Assembly: GCA_963767275.1 (NCBI GenBank)
Contig: CAVYDL010000005.1
Span: forward strand, 401,533 to 465,532
Direction of reading: 5' to 3'
DNA: 64,000 bases
From: an uncultured delta proteobacterium
Lineage (GTDB): Bacteria; Desulfobacterota; Binatia; UBA9968
In this document: positions 405-61,783 of the stretch, piece by piece
Layout of the letters: each line of letters begins with the position of its first letter
How positions within the stretch are numbered: the stretch's first letter is position 1
Notes under the pieces: model-generated
Seen by the model: the letters and a program-made list of their open reading frames with translations, nothing else
The model's database searches: none
Told to the model about the DNA's origin: nothing
Translations under genes and position numbers: made by a program

Positions 405-510
405 CGCGGTTCAAGGTTCAAACGTTCAAGAGTGCAACGTCGGATGAAGCGATGTGGTTGCAGATTCCGAATCGTTGAACGCGTTGAACCTTGAACTTTT
501 GAACGATGTT
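405..510. repeat. GTTCAA-hexamer cluster repeat, inverted pair (REP-like) between convergent cupin and MFS genes
   Basis: Left arm gttcaa-g-gttcaa-ac-gttcaa; right arm reads ttgaac-gcg-ttgaac-c-ttgaac-ttt-ttgaac; together they can form a long hairpin. Confidence 0.8.
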
Positions 511-8965: not shown

Positions 8966-9052
8966 CCGTTCAAAGCGTACAGACCGTCCGAATCCGATTA
9001 ACGATTTGAACGGAGCGCAGCGATTGAACGGCTTGAACGATTTGAACGAATC
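8966..9052. repeat. GTTCAA/TTGAAC hexamer-cluster repeat
   Basis: One gttcaa at 8968-8973 followed by ttgaac-...-ttgaac-ggc-ttgaac-gat-ttgaac overlapping the 3' end of msrQ. Confidence 0.75.
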
Positions 9053-9674
9053 AACTTTCCGACCGCACCGCGGCCGGCTTGCCGGAGAGTTTTTGTTTCA
9101 GAACCGGCGCCAGCTTGAATGCCAGACGAGAGCCCAATAACACCGTGAGTACGGCGCCATATTGCACCGGACGGCGTATGTCGGCTTTGACCAGCCAGTA
9201 GAAATGCAGTACGCCGAGGATCGCAATTCCATAAACTAGATAGTGCAGTTGCTGCCAGCGCTTGCCAAGGCGGCGGATCATTCCAGTCGTTGAGGTGACG
9301 GCCAGCGGAATCATCAGCACAAAAGCGCTGAAGCCCACAGTGATATACGGTCGCTTGAGAATATCTTTGGCGATAGCGGAGAAATCGAAAAATAAATCGA
9401 GCACCATATAAGTCGAGAAATGTAGCGCGGCGTAGCTGAATGCGAACAGGCCGAGCATGCGGCGCAGTTTGATCACTTCGTTCCAGCCGGTGAGGCGGCG
9501 CAGCGGCGTGACGGTCAGACTGGCAAGCAAAATAAATAACGACCACGAACCGGTGAAGCGGGTGATGTATTCGATCGGGTTGGCGGTCAGATCGTCCGAA
9601 TAATAACGGTAACCAAGCTGGCCCAGGGGAATCAGGCAGACAATGAATGCCGCGGGCTTTAGATAAACAAGCAT
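9051..9674 (-). CDS. msrQ: protein-methionine-sulfoxide reductase heme-binding subunit MsrQ (YedZ)
   Basis: Six-TM ferric-reductase-like protein starting MLVYLKPAAFIVCLIPL; lies downstream of msrP; track ORF 9051..10016 has a spurious N-terminal extension overlapping msrP. Confidence 0.8.
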   Translation of the reverse strand: MLVYLKPAAFIVCLIPLGQLGYRYYSDDLTANPIEYITRFTGSWSLFILLASLTVTPLRRLTGWNEVIKLRRMLGLFAFSYAALHFSTYMVLDLFFDFSAIAKDILKRPYITVGFSAFVLMIPLAVTSTTGMIRRLGKRWQQLHYLVYGIAILGVLHFYWLVKADIRRPVQYGAVLTVLLGSRLAFKLAPVLKQKLSGKPAAVRSES

Positions 9675-19751: not shown

Positions 19752-19797
19752 TCGTTCAAATCGTTAGATCGCTACGCTCCGTTCAAGCCGTTCACAA
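19752..19797. repeat. GTTCAA hexamer-cluster repeat (degenerate)
   Basis: gttcaa-atc-gttaga...gttcaa-gcc-gttcac between convergent SBP and Rieske genes. Confidence 0.6.
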
Positions 19798-22034: not shown

Positions 22035-22044
22035 CGGAGAGACG

Positions 22045-22080
22045 GCGTTCAAAACGTTCACGCCGTTCAAATCGTTGTTG
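22045..22080. repeat. GTTCAA hexamer-cluster repeat
   Basis: gttcaa-aac-gttcac-gcc-gttcaa-atc-gtt, followed by TTGCGAATTGCGAAC / ATTAATTGCGAAAAC motifs. Confidence 0.7.
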
Positions 22081-22490
22081 CGAATTGCGAACATAATCGC
22101 GATTAATTGCGAAAACTTTTGACGAGAATATTCTTAATTGTGCGCGACGCCGTTGAAACTAAAGAGTTGGACGCCTGTTTTCGACCTATGCTTTGATCTG
22201 TTCCTGACCCCACCGAAGAGCTGCTTGTTTGGTCTCTCCTCGGCTGTTGTGGCCTTCTAATTCGCCCATATCACACAGAGTTCTCTCGGGATTTGTAGTA
22301 TCGGACCTATCCAAAACGTTCGCCTTCCAGAGCCATTCTGCCGCGCTATGATGATGTCGATTGTGTAATCTCTGTATGCCTTCTTCATGTGGCTGCTACG
22401 TATCATCCGCTCCCACGTAATTAAAACCTAAGCGTACGGTTGCTTTCTCTCTGTGATGTGCGGTAAAAAAAGCTCCTTTGAGGGAGCGTT

Positions 22491-22715
22491 ATGCAACAAT
22501 TTTACAAAGGTCATACGATTAAAACCTCAGCCCAGCATTTACGCGACACGCAACAATGGCAACCCGTGCTTCAAATAATAATTTGGAATTACAACCAGAA
22601 CTTATTCAAACCTTTCAGCGCAACCGAATGTTTTTCAACACGGGAGCAAGCTGAAAGTGAAGGCCTAATAATCGCTAAAAAATGGATCGATGACGGCAAG
22701 CCCGGCGTCTCCTAA
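22491..22715 (+). CDS. hypothetical small protein (YKGHTI...AKKWIDDG)
   Basis: 74 aa; lies in the low-GC island. Confidence 0.4.
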   Translation: MQQFYKGHTIKTSAQHLRDTQQWQPVLQIIIWNYNQNLFKPFSATECFSTREQAESEGLIIAKKWIDDGKPGVS

Positions 22716-22999
22716 TCCGCTCTCGCCACGAGATCATCCGGCGGCCTCTCCGGCGTCAATTCTCCCGCCTTGAGTTATCTATGGCACGTGCTGTAAACGG
22801 TGCATGCCATACGCTATTCGGTTTACTCTTTTCCTACTTGCCGCGCTCTCTGTTACCGGGGTGCTCGGGTATCGTAGCGGTTTCGCCGGGTCTGGGCGGT
22901 CGTGCTCGTAATTTTGGTCATGATCCCGCTTATCATCGAATTCGGCGCGAGGTGTTGAAGCGGGACAGGCTATAGACTTCAACAAGCGCCGGCGGCAGG

Positions 23000-23290
23000 C
23001 TACTGTTTCATATTGTTAGTCACAAAATCGTTCCATTCGCTAGTCGCCTGACTCAGGACGCGTTGGTGATTTTTGATGGCTTCTTCCTGCTGACGGATAA
23101 ATCCCTCGATACATGATCTATACTTATTCACAGCGTCGTTAAATTTGTCTGCGTCTGGTTGGGTTTTAATCTCAGACGCCTTACCTGGACCATGACATGC
23201 GTGAGATGGGGCAGAAGCGTCAGCGTAGACGAGCGGAGTGGCAAGCATCAAAGATGCAAAAACCGACATATTGAAAAGGTTTACGATCAT
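23000..23290 (-). CDS. secreted hypothetical protein
   Basis: Signal peptide MSVFASLMLATPLVYA. Confidence 0.45.
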   Translation of the reverse strand: MIVNLFNMSVFASLMLATPLVYADASAPSHACHGPGKASEIKTQPDADKFNDAVNKYRSCIEGFIRQQEEAIKNHQRVLSQATSEWNDFVTNNMKQ

Positions 23291-23403
23291 GGCTCCTCCA
23301 GGAGATATGACTTTATCGCATGATATTCTGCTGCCTACTTGTCAACGGGACAACTCCGCGTTGCTTGGCAATACCATGCAAGTGGAAAGGAGCAGTGTGA
23401 GAT

Positions 23404-24381
23404 TTAAGGACGAAGCTTCCTGCGGAAGTTTTCGTAGAGATCATCGAATATCGCAGTGGCACGCGCAAGCCGCGCGTCGTCATCTCTATGTGCCATAGCG
23501 ATTCCGTCGATCAGTCGGGCTATGCCTATAGTTTCTTCCCGTTCAAACTTCGAGTCTTTCAGGTCGATGTCGTGGACAATTTCGGCGATCCTAACGAGGC
23601 CAGGATCACGAATCCCCGTTCGCATCATTAATACTTCCATTGAACAGCAGTCGTTCTCATGTGTGAACTCCGCCTCAAACATATCGAATCGGATTTCATC
23701 GTGTAGCGGCGTGTATCCTTTGGCGGGAACGAACTTGATGCGAGCTTCAGGATCGATGAAGCGCCGGACTACCCAGGCGGTAGCCATTCGATCGACATGG
23801 ATACCCGTTCGGGTTACCCAAGTCTTACCTCGTAAATCATTAATGTTTGTTTTGCCCTCGGATGTCGGGCCAGCTTTATTGTCGCGCAAGCGCGCCTCGA
23901 TGCCGGAGAGCAGCCCAGTTGCCGCCTCACGGCCGGGCGCGCCAAAGAAATCGATGGCAACCGCTTCATCCAGGTGGCGCTTTAGTCGCGCGAGGTCGAG
24001 TTCAAGCTGCGGCCGATTCTTTTTACCGAGCTTCCCTTGGGGACTGACAGTCTTGGCTATCCGGCGCGCACCCTCGGCGATCTGGTCGTAATCGGCCGTG
24101 CGAGATACTTGGAACAGTGCTTCGACTTCATCATCGTTAATCCCATCAACCAACCGCGCCTCACACAGCGTGCCGTCTCCGCCACCTTCGACGATCTCGC
24201 GCAATACCCATTGGAAGTCTTCTTGCGACTGATCGCTTTTAGGGAGGACGTATACGGAATTTTTGATAGCTACCGCGCCGAGCCGTTGCAGGCGGCGCCA
24301 AATTTTGACGCGTAGGTAACTCGGCTTTGGCGGGATCTGGTGAATCAATAATAACCAGCGGATGTCGTCGGATTCTTTCAT
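23404..24381 (-). CDS. chrB: chromate resistance protein ChrB
   Basis: N-terminal WLLLIHQIPPKPSYLRVKIWRRLQRLGAV...VYVLP; divergent from chrA. Confidence 0.8.
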   Translation of the reverse strand: MKESDDIRWLLLIHQIPPKPSYLRVKIWRRLQRLGAVAIKNSVYVLPKSDQSQEDFQWVLREIVEGGGDGTLCEARLVDGINDDEVEALFQVSRTADYDQIAEGARRIAKTVSPQGKLGKKNRPQLELDLARLKRHLDEAVAIDFFGAPGREAATGLLSGIEARLRDNKAGPTSEGKTNINDLRGKTWVTRTGIHVDRMATAWVVRRFIDPEARIKFVPAKGYTPLHDEIRFDMFEAEFTHENDCCSMEVLMMRTGIRDPGLVRIAEIVHDIDLKDSKFEREETIGIARLIDGIAMAHRDDDARLARATAIFDDLYENFRRKLRP

Positions 24382-24492
24382 TGATTTTCTTGACAGGAGA
24401 AACAGTTGTTATATACGTGATACATTCGTCCTATGCACCCATCGCTAGTTTATACTGTCTCGACCTTTAACTGAAACAGGGAATGTTCTGCG

Positions 24493-25731
24493 ATGGAACC
24501 TTTAGGCCGGCAAGCCCAAGTGGCAGGCAGCGCGGCTTTTATAGCGCCCGATCCGCGAATCCGCTTGTGGTCGCTCATCGGCTACTTCCTCAAACTAGGC
24601 ACTATTGGTTTTGGCGGACCAGTGGCATTGGTCGGTTTCATGTACCGTGACCTAGTCGAGCGTCGCGGTTGGATCACCGAGGATACCTACAAGCTTTCCC
24701 TCGCGCTGGCGCAGATAATGCCCGGGCCGCTGGCTGCACAGACGGCGATTGCGATCGGATATTTCGAGGGAGGCATTCTCGGCGCCACGCTGGTTGGTCT
24801 CGCGTTCATTATCCCGTCGTTCCTGATGGTCGTCGGGATTTCGCTTGCCTACGTCGCCTACGGCGGTCTTTGGTGGATGCAGGCGCTTTTCTATGCGATC
24901 GGCGCCACCGTGATTGCGATCATCGCCATTGCGGCCTACAAGCTCGCGCGCAGCACCAATAAACGCGAGCCGTTGCTTTGGGCCATTTTCGCCGTTCTGA
25001 CGGTTGTTACGGTATGGGCGCAGGCCGAGCTGGCGGAGTTCTTTATTGTTGCCGGTCTTGTCATGCTGCTCTCCCATGCGTGGCCTGGTTGGCGTGTTGG
25101 TTCGCTCATGACGTTGGGCGCGGCAACTCTGGCGGCTACGATTTGGCTGCTTGAGGCCTGGCTGCGTCAAGCCGGCACCACGGCCGGTTCCCAAGATTTA
25201 CTTGTGCAGATACTCTTATTCTTCACTAAAGCCGGCGCTTTTGTATTTGGCAGCGGGCTGGCAATCATTCCATTTTTGCAACAGGGTGTCGTACAGCAGT
25301 TCGGCTGGCTGAACCAGCACCAATTCCTCGACGCCGTCGCGGTCGCGATGATCACCCCCGGGCCAGTCGTCATCACCGTCGCTTTCATTGGATTTCTGGT
25401 AGCCGGCTTCGCAGGCGCGGTGATGGCCTCGATCGGTATTTTTCTGCCGGTATATGTCTTCACGATCGTGCCAGCTCCGTGGTTCAAACGACATCGCGAT
25501 AATCCGCAGCTCAAGGCCTTCGTCGATGGCGCCACGGCCGCTGCAACGGGAGCGATTACCGGCGCAGTCATTGTTCTCGCAATGCGCGCGATCACCGACT
25601 GGACAACGGCGACCATCGCACTTGTCAGTTTTGCTGTGCTCTGGCGCTACAAGATTTCCGAGCCGATTATCGTAACGATCTCAGGCGTGATCGGTTTGAT
25701 TCTTTGGCCACTGCTGCGCGGCGGGTCATAG
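24493..25731 (+). CDS. chrA: chromate ion transporter ChrA (CHR family)
   Basis: Two CHR half-domains with GTIGFGGPVA and AFVFGSGLAIIPFLQ; about 12 TM. Confidence 0.85.
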   Translation: MEPLGRQAQVAGSAAFIAPDPRIRLWSLIGYFLKLGTIGFGGPVALVGFMYRDLVERRGWITEDTYKLSLALAQIMPGPLAAQTAIAIGYFEGGILGATLVGLAFIIPSFLMVVGISLAYVAYGGLWWMQALFYAIGATVIAIIAIAAYKLARSTNKREPLLWAIFAVLTVVTVWAQAELAEFFIVAGLVMLLSHAWPGWRVGSLMTLGAATLAATIWLLEAWLRQAGTTAGSQDLLVQILLFFTKAGAFVFGSGLAIIPFLQQGVVQQFGWLNQHQFLDAVAVAMITPGPVVITVAFIGFLVAGFAGAVMASIGIFLPVYVFTIVPAPWFKRHRDNPQLKAFVDGATAAATGAITGAVIVLAMRAITDWTTATIALVSFAVLWRYKISEPIIVTISGVIGLILWPLLRGGS

Positions 25732-25740
25732 GCAGGAAGC

Positions 25741-26868
25741 ATGTCTCACGGAAAGAGAAACTCTATGGCACACGATGTCTGCGAACGCATTGCAGTTGTC
25801 TACCCTGGTGATTATGCGGAAAGAACGAAGGCAACAGCCGAAAATAACCGGTTCATAGACTTGTTCGGAGCCTTTGCCGCCCAAGGGATACATGCGGTAC
25901 CGGCGGTTTACCGTGATGATTTTAGCGCGGAAGTTCACGCTCAACTGATGCGCGTAGACGCCGTTCTCGTCTGGGTCAATCCTATTCAGGACGGGCGCAA
26001 TCGGTCTGTTCTCGATGCCATGCTTCGCGAGGTGGCCACTGCAGGAATTTTTGTCAGCGCGCATCCCGACATCATCCTGAAGCTGGGCACGAAGGAAATT
26101 CTATACCGAACGCGCAATATGGGGTGGGGGAGTGAGACTTATCTCTATAACAGCATGGAACAAGTGCGTCAGGAATTGCCCGCTCGCTTGGCAATCGGAA
26201 AAGCCCGCGTACTCAAACAATACCGCGGTAACGGCGGATCTGGCGTTTGGAAAGTGCAATTGCCGATGGGCGACTTTACGAGCGCTGAACAAGGTAGTGT
26301 CGGGCCTTTGCAGGCTGAAACGATCGTTCGCGTCCGCCATGCACAACGCGGCTGCAGTGAAGAAGAGATCATGTTAGGCGAATTCTTTGCACGATGTGAG
26401 GAATATTTTCTCGCGGACGGCCGGATGATTGACCAGGCGTATCAAGAACGGCTCCCCGACGGCATGATTCGCTGTTATCTCGTGCAGGAAAAGGTGGTCG
26501 GATTTGGCCACCAGGCTATCAACGCATTATTCCCCGCGCCTTCCGGCGCAGCGCCGACAGACGCCCCCCAACCTGGACCCCGCTTATACCATCCGCCCAC
26601 CAAGCCGGAATTCCAGGCTCTGAAACAGAAGTTAGAGCATGAGTGGTTACCGGCGCTGCAGCAGCTACTTGAAATCAACACCGAGAGCCTTCCCATTCTT
26701 TGGGATTGCGATTTTCTCCTCGGGCCGAAGGACGAATCCGGCGAAGACAGGTATGTGCTTTGCGAAATCAACGTCAGCAGTGTTGCGCCGTATCCTGAAT
26801 CTGCGGTGCACTACATCGTTGATGCGACGGTGGCTCGGGTACAATCGACGAGACAGAGACGCGTTTGA
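25741..26868 (+). CDS. ATP-grasp domain protein (RimK-like ligase fold), function unknown
   Basis: Motif VLKQYRGNGGSGVWKV and C-terminal LCEINVSSV resemble ATP-grasp signatures; 10 nt downstream of chrA. Confidence 0.45.
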   Translation: MSHGKRNSMAHDVCERIAVVYPGDYAERTKATAENNRFIDLFGAFAAQGIHAVPAVYRDDFSAEVHAQLMRVDAVLVWVNPIQDGRNRSVLDAMLREVATAGIFVSAHPDIILKLGTKEILYRTRNMGWGSETYLYNSMEQVRQELPARLAIGKARVLKQYRGNGGSGVWKVQLPMGDFTSAEQGSVGPLQAETIVRVRHAQRGCSEEEIMLGEFFARCEEYFLADGRMIDQAYQERLPDGMIRCYLVQEKVVGFGHQAINALFPAPSGAAPTDAPQPGPRLYHPPTKPEFQALKQKLEHEWLPALQQLLEINTESLPILWDCDFLLGPKDESGEDRYVLCEINVSSVAPYPESAVHYIVDATVARVQSTRQRRV

Positions 26869-27521
26869 ATGTCTAAAACCTCCGGGCAGGATATCGCTTC
26901 AAACGCGGCCTTCTCTTGGGCGCATTGATCGCCGTGTATCCGAGAAGATCAAAAGGATGGTGATTACTTGGTTGAAACGGTTTGCTAATTAACCAGACGC
27001 GAGCGCCGTCACTTTGGGCTCGGCGCCTTAAGGGTTTCATTGCTGCAATTTCGTCATCGCGCGCCTTGGCCTGTTGACGCGGTTGCGCAACACCTTTGTC
27101 TGTTCGTCGGCTATGACCATGCGGCCTGTTGCACCGGGCGCCTCGGTCTTGTACCGGACCGCAATATTCATGTCTCCGCTCGCCATGGATTGCACAGTTA
27201 TCGACTCAACCGATGGCTAAGTCTTTCCACTGTTAATCGGTGCTTCACTTCCGGCCCTCCCCGGTTTTTGTAGCTTTTAATTCGCGTTGATCGCGCAAAT
27301 CAATCTTACCCGGCTATAAGGTTTTACGAAGTCTCCGGGCGCGCATGCCCAATTTTCACCGGCATTTTAGGAGCCGCACTCACTATTCTGTGGCACACAT
27401 GCTGCGTTGACTTTCTTTAGTCAGCGCCCGGAGTTAGCTCGTCGTAAGTTCATCAACTTTTGGTTTTGGAGTCGGCATTCGCCGTGTATTAGTTAACAGC
27501 GAAAATGGAGTTATTATCACG

Positions 27522-28019
27522 ATGCAAGCCTGGTATGTCATTTATACAAAAGCGCAGAAGGAAGAGCTCGCGCAATTCCATTTGAAATTGAAGAATCTCG
27601 AATCGGTTTTTCCCAGACTCTTGCTACCGCTATTTTCGCGTAAGCAAAAGCGAATTGTTCCGCTATTCCCCAACTATCTTTTTGTTCGGATTGATTTCGA
27701 GAAAGAGTATGACTTTGTGCGTTGGTCGCCCGGTGTGAAGTGTTTCGTTAGTTTCAATGACAGGCCGCATCCTTTGGAAGACGGTGTGGTCGAATATCTT
27801 TTGGATCGGGCGGATAAGAACGGGATCATTGCCGCGCGGCCTAACCTAAAAAAAGGCCAAGAGGTACGAATTTGCGGTGGTCCTCTGGCTGGGCTAGATG
27901 GAATTATTCAAAATCCTCCTGATGCAAAAGGGCGAGTGACAGTGCTATTGAGCCTTTTTAACCGCAACGTCGAAGCAGGGGCGCGGTTAGAGCACATCGA
28001 GAGTAGTTGGCTGAAATAA
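27522..28019 (+). CDS. NusG-paralog transcription antiterminator (UpxY/LoaP/RfaH-like)
   Basis: NGN domain WYVIYTKAQKEELA...YLFV; KOW motif GQEVRICGGPLAGLDGII. Confidence 0.7.
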   Translation: MQAWYVIYTKAQKEELAQFHLKLKNLESVFPRLLLPLFSRKQKRIVPLFPNYLFVRIDFEKEYDFVRWSPGVKCFVSFNDRPHPLEDGVVEYLLDRADKNGIIAARPNLKKGQEVRICGGPLAGLDGIIQNPPDAKGRVTVLLSLFNRNVEAGARLEHIESSWLK

Positions 28020-28176
28020 GCTTTCTAAGTAGGTTTGTCGTTACCGGCGGCGTTTCTTTCGGGCTCGGCACCGTTTTATAAAGTTAAATAGACTAAATAT
28101 GCGACAAAAAACTGACAGGATAATGCCAAAGATACCCGCTACGAATCCTCAAAAATTCATCGGCGGACGCTAGCGT

Positions 28177-28365
28177 CTACGGATTGAGCGCAATGTCGTC
28201 TACATATCCGCACTCTGTGCATCGCGCTCGGAGACAGTCCTTCCAGACCGAAGGATCAAGCGGTGTAGTATTGGGTATTAACTTCATCACACCATTGCCG
28301 CACTTCGGACACGTACTATTTGGTTTGACCATATCGTCACACCTTTCTTGTTCGTGAATTTGCAT
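28177..28365 (-). CDS. zinc-ribbon small protein
   Basis: CPKCG...CTECG, two CxxC pairs. Confidence 0.45.
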   Translation of the reverse strand: MQIHEQERCDDMVKPNSTCPKCGNGVMKLIPNTTPLDPSVWKDCLRARCTECGYVDDIALNP

Positions 28366-28604
28366 GCGAAACGATGGCGTAATCAGGCATGCACGAGCCC
28401 TAGTCCCATTTACCGACTATGTCAAAGCCAATATCGGATGGGGTGTAGGCTCGACGCCCCCATTTGTTTCTGTACAGAAATGGGTGGGAGAGGTTGAAGG
28501 CGAACCGCCCAATTTATGATTTCTAAGTTGTGGGACGAGATTCGGATCGTTGCGTGGACGCGATGCTGCTTGGGGACGAAGCAAAAGCAGGAGGGCTATT
28601 CTGA

Positions 28605-28859
28605 CTAAAGGTCACCTAGCAAGCCGGCGTCTCTGAGCCCTTGACGGATCCGTTTTATTGCCTCGGGGCAATGCTCTCTGGCGATGGATAATAATTGGAA
28701 TGCATGATCTTCGTTGCAATGAATAGCGTTGGTAGGCCAACCGGTAGATTGAAGTTGGGATCCGGAGTTGAGCAGCATTATTCCGAGTGCGGAGCTGCGC
28801 TCAATGTGCCTGAGAAAACAGTCTACATCGGCTGAGGAAAGCTCAATGATAATCTCCAT
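28605..28859 (-). CDS. hypothetical protein
   Basis: 84 aa ORF in the island. Confidence 0.3.
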   Translation of the reverse strand: MEIIIELSSADVDCFLRHIERSSALGIMLLNSGSQLQSTGWPTNAIHCNEDHAFQLLSIAREHCPEAIKRIRQGLRDAGLLGDL

Positions 28860-29263
28860 CGTGCTGCCTCCGCGGCGCCCAAGATCATAGGGGCCACTCC
28901 GATATTAAGTATTAGTAGTTTCTGTGAGTTATCGCTGTCAGATAACAGACAACGTTCGTTTTTACCGATGTCAGGTCCGTGATGGATGGCTGCTCGCCGA
29001 ACGGAAACATCGTGACGCCGCGATCTTCGAGAGCCCAGGGGGGCGTGACGTTTTTCGGCTTGGCGGCCCGCCTTTTGATATTTCTCCGCTAGGGAAACAA
29101 CTGGCGCCAAAATTGGAATCTTTTGAGTTTATCTTTGTGCGGTAATAGTCCCATTAGGGTGAAACTATTTCATACTGTCCGGCCCATGGGACGAACGGCA
29201 ATCCTAGACAGGTTAATTCCCCATCACATTTTCGCGCATGGCGGATGCGCTCGCTCGAACCGT

Positions 29264-30322
29264 TCAGCGCGGCGGCAGCGGCCCGGCCCCGTTGATCTTT
29301 TTGAACAGATCGATGATTTCCGGGTCGCGCGGCAAATCTTTCACCAGCTTTTCCATCTCTTCCGGCAATATCGGCGTCGGTTCTTCGCCGACCATTTTTT
29401 TGTATTCCTTGTGAAACTCCGGGTCGTTGAAAGTTTTGCTAAAAGCTTGGCGCAGAACTTTTAACTGCTCGACGGAAGTTCCCGGCGGCAGAATATAGGG
29501 CGAGCCGACTTGCCTGAAGGCGCGAACCATTGACGTCAATCGCCGTTCGCGCGCCGTCTTGGCAAATTCATCGATCTCGGGCAGACGGTCGAAGCCGGAT
29601 TGTTTTAGTCCGCGCGGAACCTCCATGATCGCGTGAATGTCGATCATGCCTTTGGCGAGCATATCGGCGTTGCGCCGCACCAGAGTATCGGGATTGTTTA
29701 CGCGGCCGTCGATTTCTCCTCTGGCTAGAGCGATGTCTTGCTCATTTCCTGAATAGCCAACCAGCATTTTCGGCTCTTTGATGCCTATCAGCCAGGCAAA
29801 CAGGCGGCCGACGAAATAATTGGAATGGCCCACGGCCTGGGCGCCGATGCGTATGCCGGGCGCTTGGCGCAGCGCTTCCAAGGTGCCGAAGCCGGCGTCG
29901 CGGCGGGTGATAAAAACCCAGTGGTAGGTGCTGTGGGCGGAGCCCAGATAAATCAGTTTGTCGAGATCGTAAAGGACGCCGGCTTCTTTCAACGCGGCAT
30001 TGGCGACCAGGCCGCCGCCGATGCGGCCGATGGTGAGCCCGTCAGGTTTGGTGTTATGAAAGATATGGTTGGCGGCCTTGGTGCCGCCGCCTCCGGGCAT
30101 ATATTGGTATGCGATGGTCGGCTCGCCGGGAATATGCTTTCTCAAGACCGGGATCGTCGCCCGGACCATCGTATCGGAGGTGTCCCCGGGATCGGAGGAC
30201 TGAAGGATCGTCAGAGTCTTCCCCTGATAGAATGGCGCCTGCGACAGTGCGGGGAACGGCCACCACAGGCTTAGCAACGCTACCAGCATCAATCGTCGGA
30301 AGTCATAATTCGTTGGGAGCAT
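29264..30322 (-). CDS. Bug family (TctC-like) tripartite tricarboxylate transporter substrate-binding protein
   Basis: Signal peptide; Bug-family length; motifs PGGGGT, GYSGNEQD. Confidence 0.8.
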   Translation of the reverse strand: MLPTNYDFRRLMLVALLSLWWPFPALSQAPFYQGKTLTILQSSDPGDTSDTMVRATIPVLRKHIPGEPTIAYQYMPGGGGTKAANHIFHNTKPDGLTIGRIGGGLVANAALKEAGVLYDLDKLIYLGSAHSTYHWVFITRRDAGFGTLEALRQAPGIRIGAQAVGHSNYFVGRLFAWLIGIKEPKMLVGYSGNEQDIALARGEIDGRVNNPDTLVRRNADMLAKGMIDIHAIMEVPRGLKQSGFDRLPEIDEFAKTARERRLTSMVRAFRQVGSPYILPPGTSVEQLKVLRQAFSKTFNDPEFHKEYKKMVGEEPTPILPEEMEKLVKDLPRDPEIIDLFKKINGAGPLPPR

Positions 30323-30490
30323 TCAGCATCTCCTGCATCGACGCCCGTGTCAGTTCGCCGCTGGCGCGTAATATCGCGCAGCCGCGCAAGCGATGTCAAT
30401 GCGGATATGGTTATAATTGGTTTGCTGCCGGTCGGGGTTGACATTATCAAACCGCTTGGAGCAAATAGGCGATAACACAAGGAGGTCTTT

Positions 30491-30938: not shown

Positions 30939-30970
30939 CGGTTCAAGAGTTCAAAGGTTCAAGGTTCAAT
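30939..30970. repeat. GTTCAA hexamer-cluster repeat
   Basis: gttcaa-ga-gttcaa-ag-gttcaa-g-gttcaa. Confidence 0.75.
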
Positions 30971-31044
30971 TAGATAAGACATCGGCTCCGCCGGTTCTGA
31001 CCCAAACAGATACGGCTTGGATGATGCGAATTGCTCGCATCATC

Positions 31045-31160
31045 CAAGCCGTTTGTACTGCGCGATTCTGCTAGCTACTTCTTCGCCGCGATCGGCACTC
31101 CGGGCAGCTTGGTTTTCTCGTCGTAATACTCTTGAGAAAATTCCGGGGTTTGCGCCGTGC
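31045..31160. repeat. Direct repeat copy A; contains a 3' fragment of an enoyl-CoA hydratase gene
   Basis: About 115 nt, roughly 95% identical to 33836..33946; minus strand encodes PEFSQEYYDEKTKLPGVPIAAKK*; preceded by a perfect 16-bp-stem hairpin at 31021-31057. Confidence 0.85.
31076..31150 (-). pseudogene. enoyl-CoA hydratase 3'-terminal gene remnant (about 24 codons)
   Basis: Identical C-terminal peptide to the intact gene at 33865..34707, with no upstream reading frame. Confidence 0.7.
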
Positions 31161-31219: not shown

Positions 31220-32782
31220 TCATTTGTTGTCGACCGATTTGCTCCCTGGAGTCGGTGCGGAGGTATTGTCTTGAGTCATATCGCCTAAGTATTGAGGTAA
31301 CTCAATACCGGCCATGGCGGCGACGTCGTGCAGCGGTGGCAAACTTTTGATCAGCCCGGCGAGGAAATTGGCTGTCGAACTGCCATCCTTTCCATTGCTG
31401 GTGCCGGAATCCCAAACCGTAACCTTATCGATTTTGATACCTTTAATCGCCTCCACCTGCAGGTGGACGATTTGTTCGATCTTTTCCGTCATTAACAGAG
31501 TTGCCGCGGCTTTCGCGTCGCCGTTGCAGCCACGAACGAGTTCCAGGTAGCCGGCTGCTTTGCTGTCGAGAACCTTGCGGATGCCTTCGGCTTCGGCGTC
31601 GTACTTTAGCAAGATGGCGTCAGCCACGCCCTTGGCTTCGCGCCGGGTCTTCTCGGCTTCGGCTTCGGCGGCAATCTCGATCTTGCGTTTCTCGATCTCC
31701 TGGGGCACTACCTCGGCCGCGGTCAGTCGTTCTTGCTCGGCCTTGGCCTGGGCCTTTTGAATCTCCGCTTCGGCTTCGCGCTTTGCCACCTCGCCACGCT
31801 GTAATGATTCGGCCTGCTTGACGGCTAGTTCGGCGTTGTAGGCGGCAATATTGGCCTTAGCCATGTTCTCACCCGCGATGGCTTGAGCTTCCTGTCCCTG
31901 GATAAAAACCCGCCGGTCGGCTTCCGCCTGTTTTTTGCCCTTTTCCGCTTCGGCGACATTTACCGCTACGCGAATTTCCTTTTCCCGATTGGCGGTGGAT
32001 TCGCCGATGGTTGCCGTTGTCTCTTGCTGCTGGACGAAAATTCGCTGGTCGGCTTCAGCGCTCTTTTTCCCTTTCTCCGATTCGGCGACGTTTTCGGCGA
32101 CACGGATGGTTTTCTCGCGGGTCGCTTCGGCCTCACCGATGGCGCCCTTCTTGTCCTGTTCGGCGACGTCGACCTTGGCCTGGTTGATCGCTTCCGACGC
32201 CGCTTTTTTGCCGATTGAATCGATGTAGCCCGACTCGTCGGTGATGTCCGTAATGTTGACGTTGATCAAGTAGAGACCGATTTTGTTTAGCTCCGGCGCG
32301 ACGTTTTTGCGGATCGACTCGAGGAACGATTCGCGATCCTGGTTGATCTGCTCGATGGTGAGCGAAGCGACGGTCAGGCGGAGCTGGCCAAAGATAATCT
32401 CGCGGGCCATCTCTTCGATCTGGTTTTGGGTCTGATTGAGCAAGCGCTCGGCGGCGGCGGTCATGATCGTCGGATCGGTGCTGATGCCGACGGTAAAAGT
32501 GGAGGGAACATTGATCCGAATATTCTGCAGTGATAACGCCTTCTGGAGTGGAATGGGAATGGTCATCGGCGTTAGGCTCATGTAAGCGTAATCTTGGATC
32601 AGCGGCCAAATCAACGTGCCGCCGCCGTGGATACAATTTGCCGATTGTCCTTGTCCGACCTTGCCGTAAACTACGAGAATCTTATCCGAGGGACACCGTT
32701 TGTAGCGGCTGGCGAGGAAACTGATGGTCGATATGACCAAGATGAGGAGAGCGCCGATGGGGAGAATCCAGAAGTCAAACAT
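31220..32782 (-). CDS. flotillin-like SPFH/band-7 protein (YqiK/FloT-like)
   Basis: N-terminal TM; SPFH domain; long Ala/Glu/Lys-rich coiled-coil with internal EA repeats. Confidence 0.8.
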   Translation of the reverse strand: MFDFWILPIGALLILVISTISFLASRYKRCPSDKILVVYGKVGQGQSANCIHGGGTLIWPLIQDYAYMSLTPMTIPIPLQKALSLQNIRINVPSTFTVGISTDPTIMTAAAERLLNQTQNQIEEMAREIIFGQLRLTVASLTIEQINQDRESFLESIRKNVAPELNKIGLYLINVNITDITDESGYIDSIGKKAASEAINQAKVDVAEQDKKGAIGEAEATREKTIRVAENVAESEKGKKSAEADQRIFVQQQETTATIGESTANREKEIRVAVNVAEAEKGKKQAEADRRVFIQGQEAQAIAGENMAKANIAAYNAELAVKQAESLQRGEVAKREAEAEIQKAQAKAEQERLTAAEVVPQEIEKRKIEIAAEAEAEKTRREAKGVADAILLKYDAEAEGIRKVLDSKAAGYLELVRGCNGDAKAAATLLMTEKIEQIVHLQVEAIKGIKIDKVTVWDSGTSNGKDGSSTANFLAGLIKSLPPLHDVAAMAGIELPQYLGDMTQDNTSAPTPGSKSVDNK

Positions 32783-33391: not shown

Positions 33392-33835
33392 TTTCTGAAA
33401 TCACGAGCATGCCGCTTTCGGAATGAGCATTCGTCGACTGCCGAAGCCCTTGTGGCCGCGAGTTTGGGCGCGGATGATCCCTGACCTTATCGCCGCTTAA
33501 CCAGACACGTTTCGCGATTGTACCTGCTTGCAGCTTGGATTGTCTACGGACGAGATGGTAACTGTGTGGCTGCGAAAATAGATAAGGCGGGAAATCAATT
33601 GGAGATCCACTCAAGCGGGTAAGCCATGATTGAGAGCGTGTCTGCGTCTGGCTATCGCCGCAATGCTGACAGCTTATGGGTGATTGGACCGGCATTCCCG
33701 CGATCGGGTGAACCCCGGTAATTGTCCACGGGGAAGTGATCCAACGATTAGGGTGGCAACGGGCGAGGAGGAATCTGCTAGTAACGGATTGAAACGCACA
33801 GAATCGGCTTGAACGATCTGACCAGTCAAATCGTT

Positions 33836-33946
33836 CAAGCCGTTTGCACTCGCGATTCCGCTAGCTACTTCTTGGCCGCGATCGGCACTCCGGGCAGCTT
33901 GGTTTTCTCGTCGTAATACTCTTGAGAAAATTCCGGTTTGCGCCGT
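33836..33946. repeat. Direct repeat copy B (3' end of the intact enoyl-CoA hydratase gene)
   Basis: Matches 31045..31160; preceded by a hairpin ggcttgaacgat...atcgttcaagcc of the GTTCAA family. Confidence 0.85.
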
Positions 33947-34707
33947 TCGGAAAATGCGGCTGAACCTTCGTCGTAGTCTTTGCTGCTGCGCAGGTGGGCG
34001 TAGAATTCCCGGTGCACTTCGAAGCCCTTTTCCCATCCCTGGATCTCGTAGAGAAACTTGTCTTCGATGAACTCGATGGTGTGCTGGGCGATCAGCCGGC
34101 CGTTGCGGTTGATCGTCGTGGCCAGCTCGATGCAGTCGTCCAACAGCTTTTCCGGTTCGCAGATCTTCTGGACCAGACCTAAACGGAACGCCGTGTCGGC
34201 GTCGATCATTTGGCCGCTGAGGGCGAACCAGTAGGCCCAACCGCTGGGCAGCTGGGCGACATAGCTCGGCCACGCCGCCAAATGCGACCAGCGCACCTCG
34301 GAGCAACCGAACTTGGATGCGGGCACGCAATAGCGGATATGGCACGACAACGCCAAGCTAAAGCCGCCGCCGACCGCGTAGCCGTTGATGGCGGCGATGA
34401 TCGGTTTGTGCATCTGCAGCGGGCGCAGACTGGAGTAGCCGCGCGGGCCGGAGCGCGGTCCGGTCATTTCACCTCTGGCGAAGGCGATGTTTTCTTTCAA
34501 ATCGCCGCCGACGCAAAAAGCATCGGCAGTGCCGGTCAGGATAATCGACCAGACATCGTCGTCGGATTTAGCTTTTTGCCAACATTCGTCGAGCGCCCAG
34601 TAGAGGTCGCGGCTGATGGCATTTTTTTTCTCCGGGCGATTGAGCTTGATGATCGCGATATGGGGATCGCGCTTCTCGTAAATACATAGGGGTCCTGCTT
34701 CGGCCAT
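33865..34707 (-). CDS. enoyl-CoA hydratase/isomerase (crotonase family)
   Basis: Motifs AFCVGGDLKE, INGYAVGGG; start MAEAGPL at 34707 with GAGGAGGAA RBS. Confidence 0.85.
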   Translation of the reverse strand: MAEAGPLCIYEKRDPHIAIIKLNRPEKKNAISRDLYWALDECWQKAKSDDDVWSIILTGTADAFCVGGDLKENIAFARGEMTGPRSGPRGYSSLRPLQMHKPIIAAINGYAVGGGFSLALSCHIRYCVPASKFGCSEVRWSHLAAWPSYVAQLPSGWAYWFALSGQMIDADTAFRLGLVQKICEPEKLLDDCIELATTINRNGRLIAQHTIEFIEDKFLYEIQGWEKGFEVHREFYAHLRSSKDYDEGSAAFSERRKPEFSQEYYDEKTKLPGVPIAAKK

Positions 34708-34817
34708 GTGTTCCTCCTCTTGGAAGTGGAAAATTGACAATGGAAAATTGAAAATGTCGGAGCGGTGCTAAGCTTAAGCGGATTCGTTTTCAATTCTCAA
34801 TTTTTAATTTTCAATTG

Positions 34818-36026
34818 TTAATAGAGCACCTTCTCTTCGTCCAATTTTTTGATTTGGTCGTCGCTGAGACCGAGCAAGTTACGAGCGATCTCGTGGGTAT
34901 GCTCGCCCATGAGCGGGGCGACACCGCGGACTTTTCCCGGCGTCAACGACAGGCGCATCGGGACGTTTTCAGTGACGACATCGCCGGCCTCGGGCTCGGT
35001 CATGTTGACGAGAAAACCGGTGGCGGCGTATTGCTTGTCGTTCTTGAACTGGTCTTCGACATCCTGCACCACGGCGGCACAGACGTCGACGCCTTGGACC
35101 AGTTCCATTACTTCGTAGGGATCGTGCTGCAGCGTCCAGTCGGTCACCCACTTGTCGAGCTCGTCTTTGTGGCGCACCCGTTGCCAGTGGGTGGCGAAAT
35201 TGGCGCTGCGCTTGAGCCCTGATTTTTCCACCAGGCCGGCAAAGCGTTCCCACTCGTCCTGCGTATAGGCGGCGATCACGCACCAGCGATCATTGCCTTT
35301 GCATTGGTAGGGTCCGTAGGGCGAGGCGACGAGACTGCGGTTGCCTTCGGGCTGGGGCTCGCGCTTGTTGACGGTGTATTCGAGATAACGCGGTCCGAGC
35401 AGGGCGGCACCGATCTCCTGCTGGGCGTTGTCGATCCACTGGCCGCGGCCGGTCTTTTTTCTTTCCATCAGGGCTAGGACGACGCCGAAGGCGCCGGTGA
35501 CGCCGCCCATGAAGTCGGGATGCTGGGTGCGCGGTTCGGCGGTGGCCGTGGTCGCGCCGGGGTAGTTCCACAAATAAGTCGTCGCCATGGTGTTGCCGAC
35601 GTTGGGACCGTAGGTGAGATCGGTGGCGTGGGGCCCGGAGCAGCCCATGCCTTTGACGCGGATCAAGATCATGCGCGGATTGATCATTTGAAGGTCGGGC
35701 CAATTGAGGCCCCACTTTTCCAAGATGCCCAGCCCGAAATTTTCCACCAGCACGTCGGACTTTTTCACCAACTCTTTGACTAGATCGCGGCCCTTGGCAG
35801 TCTGCATGTTGACCGTGAAAGATTTCTTGCCCCGTTGCAGCTTCATGAAGTCGGGCTTCTTGTTCCACAGCTTGGGATCTTCGCCGCGATGGCCATCGCC
35901 GCGCAGACGGGTCTCGCAGCGGATCACCTCCGCGCCAAATTCACAGAGCACCCGCGCGACAGTGGGGCCGGCGGCGCCGGTGGTAAGTTCGATAACGCGA
36001 ATGCCTTCAAGGGGTAATTGGCTCAT
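34818..36026 (-). CDS. CoA-transferase family III (CaiB/BaiF) protein
   Basis: N-terminal GIRVIELTTGAAGP Rossmann-like motif; interlocked family III architecture. Confidence 0.85.
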   Translation of the reverse strand: MSQLPLEGIRVIELTTGAAGPTVARVLCEFGAEVIRCETRLRGDGHRGEDPKLWNKKPDFMKLQRGKKSFTVNMQTAKGRDLVKELVKKSDVLVENFGLGILEKWGLNWPDLQMINPRMILIRVKGMGCSGPHATDLTYGPNVGNTMATTYLWNYPGATTATAEPRTQHPDFMGGVTGAFGVVLALMERKKTGRGQWIDNAQQEIGAALLGPRYLEYTVNKREPQPEGNRSLVASPYGPYQCKGNDRWCVIAAYTQDEWERFAGLVEKSGLKRSANFATHWQRVRHKDELDKWVTDWTLQHDPYEVMELVQGVDVCAAVVQDVEDQFKNDKQYAATGFLVNMTEPEAGDVVTENVPMRLSLTPGKVRGVAPLMGEHTHEIARNLLGLSDDQIKKLDEEKVLY

Positions 36027-36143
36027 AAAATATTCACCTGCTGGTTAAATGGTTGGAGTGATGGAGTGGTGGATAATGGAGTGTTGGTCGGAACTGGAAC
36101 CCATCACTCCGATACTTCAGTCCTCCAGCTCTCCAATTCTTTT

Positions 36144-40918: not shown

Positions 40919-41113
40919 CGGGCGAAGAATTGGCCGCAAAAGCGCAAACGGCGCAAAAAGGAATTCCAAATTGTCAGGGCGAGTTTACAACTGCCATCTT
41001 GGATTGTCCTTGCTGAAGATTCAGTACCACTTGTGCAAGCAGCCGATCTGTTCATGGAGGGTGAGTAAAGCGCGAACGGGTAATTTCTTACTGATGATTT
41101 CGGGACGTCGCCA

Positions 41114-49514: not shown

Positions 49515-49578
49515 AATAATGGTTGGGCTGGCGATGGGTTTTTCTCACAGAGCGATCAGCGTCGTTTGTCAGCGGGCG

Positions 49579-49652
49579 AATCGATCATTGAATCGATCTT
49601 GCAATCGATCTTGCAATCGATCTTAGAATCGGTCTTGGAATCGGTCTTGGAG
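49579..49652. repeat. 12-nt tandem repeat (AATCGATCTTGC x about 6, degenerating)
   Basis: Sits directly upstream of the VOC gene start. Confidence 0.85.
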
Positions 49653-49657
49653 GGATT

Positions 49658-50023
49658 ATGTCGATCAAGCTGAATCACACGATTGTGCCGGCTAAAGACA
49701 AAGACGCCGCGGCGCGATTGTTCGCGAAGATTTTTGGCCTCACCTACGATGGACCGATGGGCCATTTTGCCCCGGTGCGGATTAACGACGAGCTGACACT
49801 GGACTTCGATAATGCCGATTCCTTCGAGCCGCATCATTACGCCTTTCATGTCAGCGACGAGGAATTCGATGCGATCTTTCGGCGCATCCAAGATACCGGC
49901 CTGACCTGGGGCAGCGAGCCGCGGAGTCCCACCAACGGTCAATTGAATACTCGAAAGGGCGGCCGCGGCATATACTTTCATGGACCCGACGGCCATTTGC
50001 TCGAGCTGCTCACACGGCCGTGA
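49658..50023 (+). CDS. VOC family protein
   Basis: Glyoxalase-like fold. Confidence 0.65.
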   Translation: MSIKLNHTIVPAKDKDAAARLFAKIFGLTYDGPMGHFAPVRINDELTLDFDNADSFEPHHYAFHVSDEEFDAIFRRIQDTGLTWGSEPRSPTNGQLNTRKGGRGIYFHGPDGHLLELLTRP

Positions 50024-51168: not shown

Positions 51169-51295
51169 GCCGACGATAGTAAACGCCCAAGACTCACGAC
51201 GAAGACGCCAAGGCCACCGAGGGTTTTGAAAAATTTGATGCTTAAGTTTCTCCCACTTGATTGCCTTGCTGGTGAAACGGAGTTCGCTGTAGGAG

Positions 51296-55302: not shown

Positions 55303-55410
55303 TGGTTCAAAACGTTCAAGCCGTTCAAATCGTTCAAAATGTCGGAGAAGCGGGCTCCGATAACCTCCGAGACGACTTGAACGATTTGAACTTTTTGAAC
55401 GGCTTGAACT
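55303..55410. repeat. GTTCAA/TTGAAC hexamer-cluster inverted repeat (best copy)
   Basis: gttcaa-aac-gttcaa-gcc-gttcaa-atc-gttcaa, about 45 nt spacer, then ttgaac-gat-ttgaac-ttt-ttgaac-ggc-ttgaac. Confidence 0.85.
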
Positions 55411-56298: not shown

Positions 56299-56363
56299 GC
56301 AGGATTGGTTCAAGTCGGTCAAATACTTGAAAACGTTAAGATCGTTTCGCATCGAGAAAGGAG

Positions 56364-61544: not shown

Positions 61545-61580
61545 CGTTCAGGCGGTTTCCGCTCAAAGCCGCTTTGAACG
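61545..61580. repeat. GTTCAA-family palindromic repeat
   Basis: cgttcaggcggtttccgctcaaagccgctttgaacg between convergent genes. Confidence 0.65.
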
Positions 61581-61783
61581 TGTTTTGTTTACTACAGTTT
61601 TAGACCCCCGCGTCGTTGCCGTGACAACGAAAATCCGGGGCGAACATCCTTCGGCTCACTCAGGACAGGCTCCGGTCCGTTTGGACGGGGAGACCTGGAT
61701 TCCCGCGTACGCGAGAATGACGGCAGTCGGAATCTTCTCACGTTCGATAAACCCAGGACCAGATAGTTCGAGCCAACCGTTGG

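Follow-up and report, generated by a model that had tools for sequence, protein, structure and literature searches.

Repetitive extragenic palindromic (REP) sequences, bacterial interspersed mosaic elements (BIMEs), short tandemly repeated repetitive (STRR) sequences and TAACTGA repeats are abundant, and their mechanisms are mostly poorly understood. REP sequences function in the folded transcript, by 3' protection and punctuation of operon mRNA. Short words are also used as arrays of protein-binding sites, such as the (G/U)AG arrays of TRAP in RNA or, in DNA, the heptads of omega (pSM19035) and the metboxes of MetJ, all of which combine a word of 3-8 nt and a fixed short period with free spacers; omega binds both direct and convergent heptads. 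The TAACTGA sets comprise 169 direct and one indirect arrangement (MacGregor 2015, PMC4679880). Here we describe arrays of the hexamer GTTCAA in a 64-kb stretch of DNA from an uncultured delta proteobacterium of the class Binatia (assembly GCA_963767275.1, contig CAVYDL010000005.1, positions 401,533-465,532), which in its full length is referred to below as the window. The arrays lie just past stop codons and are often followed by an inverted array, and our tentative preference is to read them as a REP/BIME-like family of array-built palindromes that may act as hairpins at the 3' ends of cistrons.

GTTCAA arrays at the 3' ends of genes

The initial annotation of the window reported recurrent clusters of GTTCAA, and these clusters are real. 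GTTCAA and its complement TTGAAC occur 70 times on the two strands of the window, compared with 30.4 +/- 5.8 in dinucleotide-preserving shuffles, none of which reached 70. Since the approximately 30 isolated matches equal the expectation, the whole excess consists of clusters. Neighboring words on the same strand and 7-9 nt apart form 16 pairs (nine at 9 nt, four at 8 nt and three at 7 nt), vs. at most four such pairs for each of the unrelated hexamers. A degenerate scan, in which an array was defined as four units with at least 19 of 24 matches, yielded eight array arms in the window and none in ten Markov shuffles; being composed of 5-11-nt units placed head-to-tail and longer than expected by chance, the arrays are in this respect like long simple-sequence repeats (SSRs). 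Tandem Repeats Finder reported periods of 7, 9, and 18 at these loci. The density is about 10 elements per 64 kb, or roughly one per 6-8 kb. The GTTCAA arrays are a genuine dispersed intergenic family.

The recurrence extends beyond the window. The lineage set, chosen without regard to the word, includes 80 orthologous loci of an enoyl-CoA hydratase gene (ECH1) from metagenomes (67-97% amino acid identity) and the window itself, 437 kb in total; it contains 69 distinct GTTC[A/C]A arrays with a strict 9-nt period. The consensus of the 9-nt unit, derived from 262 units, is G-T-T-C-[A/C]-A-R-N-C, with A or C at position 5 (G in no more than 2% of units), a nearly random position 8 (about 0.2 bits), and C at position 9 in 73%. 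As the word is kept and the spacer is largely free, the unit is not an identical copy produced by slippage. Arrays in this lineage are 2-5 units long, and their ends decay into degenerate units. The left arm is richer in C than in G (0.25 vs. 0.16) and has one or two YC dinucleotides per unit.

The gene map of the window, which belongs to a soil-metagenome contig of 2.35 Mb, was based on GC content at third codon positions and checked by Pfam and by the gene calls of the source contig; the genes encode proteins of ordinary metabolism and transport. The siting at gene 3' ends described in the initial annotation was borne out, as each array follows a Pfam-supported gene, starts 5-15 nt past its stop codon and has the GTTCAA word on the sense strand. 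The median distance between the stop codon and the first word is 15 nt, and single arrays are found 12 times in the sense orientation after a stop codon and three times in the antisense one. None of the 11 divergent (promoter) gaps holds an array, compared with 4 of 11 convergent and about 6 of 30 co-directional gaps. The elements of the window (E1-E8), a relative with a variant word and a locus excluded from the family are as follows.

409..429, + strand: left arm of E1, three GTTCAA units spaced 7-8 nt apart, the first of them 7 nt past the stop of a cupin gene (70-402, +)
475..504, - strand: right arm of E1, four TTGAAC units, extending to within 4 nt of the stop of a convergent gene of the major facilitator superfamily (MFS; 509-1762, -)
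8966..9055, - strand: E2, in the order of the transcribed (-) strand 4-5 GTTCAA units (9006-9055) and, beyond them, an inverted partner that is degenerate (8967-8987)
19752..19797, + strand: E3, a weak, decayed array between the convergent NMT1 and Rieske genes, with two exact GTTCAA units and the variants GTTAGA and GTTCAC
22045..22079, + strand: E4, a single array of 9-nt period, GTTCAA AAC GTTCAC GCC GTTCAA ATC GTT, 11 nt after the stop of a dienelactone hydrolase gene
30939..30970, + strand: E5, a single array of four GTTCAA units with a spacing of 7-8 nt, beginning 11 nt past the stop of a glyoxalase gene
33802..33845, - strand: E6, a minimal hairpin of 1+1 units (CGGCTTGAACGATCTGAC / GTCAAATCGTTCAAGCCG) after the ECH gene 33865-34740 (-)
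55303..55337, + strand: left arm of E7, four units, GTTCAA AAC GTTCAA GCC GTTCAA ATC GTTCAA, 11 nt after the ECH1 stop (55293)
55338..55376, + strand: loop of E7, with an inner inverted core GTCGGAG...CTCCGA
55377..55409, - strand: right arm of E7, four TTGAAC units with spacers GAT, TTT, and GGC; 25 nt separate its end from the GTG start codon of ECH2 (55435)
56306..56340, + strand: E8, a degenerate single 9-nt array, GTTCAA GTC GGTCAA ATA CTTGAA AAC GTTAAG, 7 nt after the ECH2 stop
34727..34822, unstranded: word-variant relative, heptad arrays of (A)TTGAAA(A) and inverted TTTTCAA between a CoA-transferase and an ECH gene
61545..61580, + strand: non-member, a GC-rich, terminator-like hairpin with a U-run, whose stem base coincidentally reads GTTCAg/TTGAAC

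E1 fills the entire 106-nt convergent gap between the cupin and MFS genes. E2 is located downstream of an MsrQ-like ferric-reductase gene (ending at 9051), and the enoyl-CoA hydratase genes ECH1 and ECH2, neighbors in one co-directional cluster, are followed by E7 and E8, respectively. E5 is followed by a separate perfect 18-bp hairpin (31012-31052) and then by a short U-rich TTTGT. The orthologue of E6 in L015 (loci outside the window are cited by such numbers) has three units between the same outer ends; L015, a metagenome-assembled genome (MAG) labelled 'uncultured delta proteobacterium', is the closest labelled relative, with 83-85% amino acid identity over two syntenic genes. The 34727-34822 element and the array/loop junction of E7 have the 12-mer AAAATGTCGGAG in common.

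Among the loci listed in the initial annotation, those at 405-510 (3+4 units), 8966-9052, 22045-22080, 30939-30970, and 55303-55410 (4+4 units) were retained, 19752-19797 proved to be weak, and 61545-61580 was removed, being a GC-rich hairpin with a U-run in which the word occurs only at the stem base. Two loci were added to that list, the degenerate array at 56306-56340 and the 1+1-unit hairpin at 33802-33845. The proposed 9-nt period applies to the elements at 55303, 8966, 22045, and 19752, while those at 405 and 30939 have periods of 7-8 nt.

Several other readings of the arrays were considered and rejected. Coding repeats are excluded in the window by the position of the arrays after the stops of Pfam-supported genes and by the presence of 7- and 8-nt periods; moreover, the most variable position of the unit (position 8) has semi-variable neighbors, with no codon pattern. 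A promoter with TTGAAC as the -35 box is excluded, as there is neither a -10 box nor space for one before the next start codon. The integron attC site (RYYYAAC...GTTRRRY) has the opposite polarity, and the neighboring genes form ordinary metabolic operons. No Rfam family matched the window or ten element-rich loci at the gathering score, and at the E-value threshold only sub-threshold generic matches to long hairpins (miRNA precursors) were obtained at E7. No tRNA or tmRNA genes were found in the window. A literature search with the arrayed sequences (GTTCAAAGTTCAA and similar ones) returned only incidental primer matches and no description of GTTCAA arrays, and the family appears to be undescribed so far.

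Paired arms, conservation and turnover

The elements take two forms: one sense array just past the stop codon, or the same array followed by a loop and an inverted array. In the paired form the loop is 15-60 nt long (median about 35). The top inverted repeats of the window are the array elements, and their arms, being repetitive, can pair in several registers. As the initial annotation had supposed for the inverted pairs, they fold into very stable hairpins; E7 as RNA has a predicted energy of -53.9 kcal/mol (z = -5.6), with internal loops of 2-3 nt between its three to four word helices. The repeat unit itself, a 7-9-nt stretch of word and spacer, is non-palindromic, and palindromy arises only through two opposed arrays. 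This symmetry ends exactly at the array edges, 26 of 31 elements having no extension of the stem. No motif, GTAG-like tetranucleotides included, is conserved within the 12-15 nt beside the arrays in the window and in 31 elements of the lineage set, and direct repeats at the element edges are no longer than in permuted pairs of flanks, which gives no sign of target-site duplication.

The polarity of the paired elements is fixed. In the lineage set the word array lies 5' of the loop, on either strand, in 31 cases and never 3' of it for GTTC[A/C]A, and the corresponding ratio for TGGA[A/G]T is 19:0. The arms covary: the variant at position 5 of the word (A or C) is concordant in 125 mirrored unit pairs and discordant in five, compared with about 40% discordance expected if the arms were independent. 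Elements of the A type and the C type coexist on the same contigs, e.g., in L189 and L128. The spacers of the two arms are not compensated, their complementarity being 0.39 vs. 0.42 +/- 0.03 for spacers of unrelated elements. Concordant words and non-complementary spacers imply that what is maintained is the pairing of words in any register, and not the maximal stability of the stem. This points to 6-bp word helices separated by internal loops or unpaired spacers.

The conservation of E7 is much higher than that of its surroundings. In comparison with orthologues at 85% amino acid identity, 136 of 138 word positions are identical (99%), followed by 44 of 54 in the spacers (81%), 87 of 117 in the loop (74%), and about 70% in the flanks; third codon positions of the adjacent gene are identical at 0.59-0.61. 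At 97% amino acid identity, the element is 95% identical vs. 0.75 at third codon positions. Judged from these sequences, the conservation is that expected of purifying selection or else of very recent homogenization.

The same site is subject to turnover, in line with the suggestion in the initial annotation that the elements could be recombination hot spots: unit number differs between strains that are 97% identical, and some other close relatives carry another word family. L126 differs from L125 by a clean deletion of 18 nt, i.e., two units. L128 and L133 (94% amino acid identity) have the same architecture built of GTTCCA/TGGAAC, with every spacer and the loop different, and L129 and L130 (93-95%) have arrays of GAGGCNN and ACTCCANN. 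More distant relatives have 8-nt TGGAGT/TGGAAT arrays with inverted ACTCCA, 7-nt TAGGCA arrays, GGGGTAA, a single GTTCAA array, or nothing. Across the 80 orthologous loci no clean empty site was found, its place being taken by other word families or by a short spacer. Since slippage cannot give both arms a new word with new spacers, replacement by another copy is the simpler reading. Sequence comparison within the window likewise points to copying between loci: E4 and the left arm of E7 (22047-22076 and 55305-55334) are identical at 29 of 30 positions, the order of spacers included, and E2 is identical at 23 of 24. The loops of E7, E1, E2, and the 34727 element have a core of the GTCGGAG...CTCCGA type in common, the loops of the window being otherwise different. 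Two short contigs from other samples stop in or beside E7 (L122 some 114 nt and L123 some 40 nt beyond the stop codon of ECH1), a break that a dispersed repeat would be expected to cause.

Other word families, other phyla and the surroundings of the elements

At the same sites, elements of the same architecture are built of several different words, GTTCAA being one of them. The lineage set also contains, among others, 50 TGGAGT/TGGAAT arrays of 8-nt period and 15 AGGCA arrays of 7-nt period, the period being specific to the word. In the window, a hairpin at 36040-36140 is built of TGGAGTGA arrays of 8-nt period and an inverted arm of ACTCCA type and lies between paralogous CoA-transferase III genes (-); like the hairpin at 34727-34822, it separates genes of one CoA-transferase/hydratase cluster. 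A TGGAGT-type word fills the gap between ECH1 and ECH2 in many relatives (L154, L159, L166, L171, and L177), and TGGAGT always comes first. This word contains GGAG, which resembles a Shine-Dalgarno (SD) sequence, and its complement is anti-SD-like. At the position syntenic to 34727-34822, L015 (here 85% identical) has a heptad hairpin made of GGTCAGA/GATCAAA (6040-6150). Short arrays of 9-nt period are also found after the stops of upstream genes at 40935-40958 (GCGCAAA(A/G)) and 51190-51220 (CACGAAG-like), and the same words are arrayed in L142 and L172.

A pattern scan of one genome per species gave at least 120 loci for GTTCAA, with about 150 matches expected by chance. Raw locus counts were discarded as a sign of anything special, since the control words AACTTG, GTACTA, and TGGAGT also reach at least 120 loci in viral contigs. 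The arrangement of the arrays is more informative. Convergent GTTCAA pairs make up 15 of the 120 genome loci listed, from at least six phyla, and 14 of the 120 viral loci listed, while divergent pairs number two in each set; for the three control words the convergent/divergent counts are 1/1, 1/1, and 1/0. The paired architecture is specific to GTTCAA relative to these control words. Genome loci with pairs belong to Acidobacteriota (Pyrinomonadaceae), Binatia, Desulfobacterota, Verrucomicrobiota, Bacteroidota, Latescibacterota, and a betaproteobacterium. In the other phyla the unit is mostly the 7-nt R-GTTCAA and the stems are nearly perfect. Most of the 9-nt-period GTTCAA arrays among the IMG/VR loci (L207, L220, L270, and others) are coding, representing collagen-like Gly-Val/Ile-Gln repeats (GGT GTT CAA) in very long open reading frames, and are thus false positives in genome-wide counts of word arrays.

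In two loci, L053 and L286, the copies share 25-50 nt past the arrays, and in L053 they flank a non-coding interior of 450 nt. L053 is a Desulfobacterales MAG, where (GTTCAAR)4 together with about 25 nt of shared sequence forms perfect 55-nt inverted termini (1100-1655 and 3530-3758); these enclose 170-450 nt of non-coding DNA, once within a divergent promoter gap, and resemble miniature inverted-repeat transposable elements (MITEs) more than the window elements do. L286 (1-2792), a viral contig from IMG/VR, has at least five convergent GTTCAA heptad elements within 2.3 kb, one downstream of each small gene, with a conserved loop GTTGAAACCGCCCTCTTTCCCAAAC. A viral contig of this type may be a vehicle for spread between hosts.

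Some further features were noted in the window. The 3' end of the ECH gene 33865-34740 is duplicated, giving a direct repeat of 86 nt (98% identity) in segments 31012-31146 and 33802-33936. The pair brackets 2.8 kb with a flotillin/SPFH gene (31220-32782) and one more gene, and this segment looks like an insertion. The hairpins to the left of the two repeat copies have the same outer stem, CGGCTTG...CAAGCCG, and wholly different self-complementary interiors (GGATGATGCGA vs. AACGATCTGAC). The region 22035-30490 has a GC content of 0.50-0.52 vs. about 0.58 and non-coding gaps of 965, 653, 585, and 404 nt; it encodes ChrB and a chromate transporter, as well as a paralogue of the NusG family that stands alone (27522-28019; 165 aa; E = 1e-15 for the NusG N-terminal domain), and may be an acquired island that carries an antitermination factor of its own. 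Six tandem 12-nt units (GAATCGATCTTG, 88% matches) at 49578-49651 are located directly 5' of an ATG at 49658; they are unrelated to GTTCAA and occupy a 5', not a 3', position.

Possible roles and known systems

The architecture, the 3' placement, the covariation of the arms, purifying selection and rapid turnover are apparent from the data. The reading we lean toward, with confidence short of even, is that of REP/BIME-like array-built palindromes functioning as hairpins at cistron 3' ends; it is preferred because of where the elements are placed and how stable they are, because their pairing is under selection, and because word families can replace one another at a single site. Pairing of the words would produce a long interrupted hairpin, alike on both strands, which would most likely act in the transcript, as REP/BIME do in enterobacteria. 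A stable stem-loop would then stand at the 3' end of a cistron, often within an operon and within reach of a ribosome at the stop codon. Its possible effects include a block to 3' exonucleases, differential expression of neighboring cistrons, and insulation from read-through or antisense transcription. Slippage alters the number of units, and whole elements give way to copies from other loci, perhaps through ectopic conversion or some mobilizing activity.

Several results weigh against this interpretation. The stability of the stem is not maximized, since the spacers show no extra complementarity. The antisense RNA folds more stably in 20 of 27 oriented elements and there is no G-U signal for the sense transcript, so that a DNA-level or strand-neutral role fits at least as well. 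Partnerless single arrays are common and persistent in orthologues, and a hairpin model leaves them unexplained; nor does hairpin stability predict the fixed polarity (31:0, 15:2, and 14:2). Finally, no U-tract or T-run was found after the right arms or single arrays in the window, and any termination would not be of the canonical intrinsic type. A terminator consensus scan, which was itself not above shuffles, placed no site on the array elements.

The next candidate, possible though clearly less probable, is an element acting at the DNA level, with the arrays recognized, as a hairpin or cruciform in single-stranded or supercoiled DNA or as head-to-head duplex sites, by a DNA-binding or DNA-processing protein. 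Candidates for this protein include a REP-associated tyrosine transposase (RAYT) or other HUH enzyme, a recombinase, gyrase, and a nucleoid protein; the elements could spread as selfish DNA resembling REPINs or foldback elements, tolerated only at 3' ends. Such an element would account for the fixed polarity of the arms, similar to that of terminal inverted repeats, for a conserved word with a free spacer and a period strict for each word, and for RNA folds without a bias to the sense strand. It also agrees with the order of spacers common to copies at unrelated loci, whole-element replacement in close relatives, the sequence of 25-50 nt shared beyond the arrays by the L053 and L286 copies together with the flanked 450-nt interior of L053, and the presence of elements in viral contigs. 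However, the link to a RAYT-like transposase made in the initial annotation found no support, as no Y1/RAYT or other transposase domain is present in the approximately 58 window genes scanned, and no gene family recurs beside the arrays in 240 loci. Target-site duplications do not exceed the null and the flanks are not conserved. Moreover, the loops differ among the copies of the window and are kept between orthologues, which implies vertical descent, and strong purifying selection on the whole element would be unusual for purely selfish DNA.

It is unlikely that the sense array is a multivalent platform in the transcript, a row of sites that an oligomeric RNA-binding protein (TRAP-like, CsrA-like or Rho-loading) would occupy and that the inverted arm, as an anti-array, would mask. 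In favor of such a platform, the combination of a word and a variable spacer is designed like the (G/U)AG arrays of TRAP, single sense arrays occur directly after stop codons, and the left arm has more C than G, with YC dinucleotides, similar to rut sites. A universal partner would account for the same word in many phyla. In the most specific version the 9-nt unit mimics the tRNA T-loop recognized by TruB or TrmA. Position 57 of bacterial T-loops is mostly a purine, commonly G. The unit G-U-U-C-[A/C]-A-R-N-C matches, position for position, the recognition consensus of the T-loop, GUUCNANNC (PMC13492117, PMC5340967). Thus, the sequence consensus G-U-U-C-N-A-N-N-C is matched by the arrays, and a stem-closed 7-nt loop with a purine at position 57 is not: position 5 of the unit is A or C, with G in no more than 2%, unlike bacterial T-loops; the 7-nt unit of other phyla has no closing C; and the closing stem is at most 2 bp (C-G/G-C between adjacent units), whereas TruB requires a stem-loop similar to the T-arm. 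The words are, besides, predicted to be paired with the other arm, and the occurrence of unrelated words (TGGAGT, AGGCA, GGGGTAA) at the same orthologous site makes the function look generic. The wider claim that the arrays are a cross-phylum cis-element read by a conserved cellular factor, each unit being one site and the inverted arm a mask, is considered improbable. In its sharpest form, T-loop-like units (GUUC[A/C]ARNC) set in rows just past stop codons may recruit or titrate, at the 3' ends of mRNAs, the T-loop-binding enzymes TruB and TrmA or some other universal protein that binds RNA or DNA. If true, it would explain the word shared across phyla, the single sense arrays and the near-invariant words. 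The rarity of G at position 5 and the exchange with other word families speak against it.

Rather unlikely, too, is a neutral origin, with the arrays being ordinary SSRs of 5-11-nt units that arise in non-essential spacers, through slippage during replication and template switching, and have no function. Heptanucleotide repeats are, according to the summary of Mrazek 2007 given in PMC4679880, the commonest class of long SSRs in prokaryotes. The polymorphism of exactly two units, the decay of arrays into degenerate units at their ends, and the abundance of control-hexamer arrays in viral contigs would also suit this origin. However, the elements are conserved far above synonymous sites; a word conservation of about 99% combined with a nearly random position 8 is not the outcome of slippage alone; the elements have a fixed polarity and a paired architecture that is GTTCAA-specific relative to control words; and arrays remain at 2-5 units in this lineage. 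The least probable role, by our estimate, is that of canonical intrinsic (Rho-independent) terminators, a variant of the terminator hairpins named in the initial annotation: stable hairpins at gene 3' ends and the moderately U-rich 3' arm (YTTGAAC)n of the 7-nt type, which could explain the polarity of that word, are outweighed by the lack of a U-run after any array element of the window, where the consensus scan also places no terminator, by the position of many elements between closely spaced co-directional genes that apparently form one operon, with 25 nt left to the following start codon, by the existence of ordinary U-run hairpins elsewhere in the organism (61545-61590; 31012-31052 with TTTGT), and by the TGGAGT family, which has the same polarity and is not U-rich.

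The GTTCAA family offers a clean handle on repeats of this kind, combining a 6-nt word, a strict period and fixed polarity with a measurable pairing constraint and purifying selection, and different word families at one site in close relatives are natural swaps for comparison. Explaining these elements could explain a feature of many uncultured soil genomes. In practical terms, they break short-read assemblies and could be used as markers of cistron ends in annotation pipelines.

Compared with known systems, the elements resemble the foldback transposons of eukaryotes and MITEs in having arms that are inverted arrays of short sub-repeats, with fixed polarity and an interior of variable length (15-500 nt in L053). 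In contrast to these, they have no target-site duplication, no conserved interior in the window copies and no associated transposase in the window genes scanned, and orthologous copies are inherited vertically and appear to be under selection. The TRAP, omega and MetJ arrays are few per genome and located in regulatory 5' regions, whereas the concordance of arms in GTTCAA elements points to base pairing. Other parallels are found in the TAACTGA heptamers of Beggiatoaceae, Cyanobacteria and Bacteroidetes (PMC4679880) and in the cyanobacterial STRR sequences, where a particular heptamer likewise forms short intergenic arrays, of 2-6 copies; distant phyla have the same word without an evident transfer mechanism, and related words are not arrayed. 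However, TAACTGA repeats are located just upstream of start codons and GTTCAA arrays just downstream of stop codons, and the latter typically have an inverted partner array and spacers that vary, and show purifying selection.

The likeness to REP and BIME sequences of Enterobacteria and Pseudomonas, including REPIN doublets, is one of siting and behavior. Both are abundant and strictly extragenic, lie at 3' ends and inside operons, in many cases no more than about 15 nt from the stop codon, and form stable hairpins by inverted arrangement; in both, the site differs between close relatives and short-read assemblies break. Accordingly, the comparison with REP/BIME made in the initial annotation is valid for the siting, at 3' ends and inside operons, and not for the structure. 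The REP unit is an imperfect palindrome of 20-40 nt with a 5' GTAG-type motif and is tied to RAYT, whereas the GTTCAA unit is a non-palindromic one of 7-9 nt with no conserved flanking tetranucleotide or other flank. REP sequences are, furthermore, lineage-specific, whereas the GTTCAA word spans phyla.

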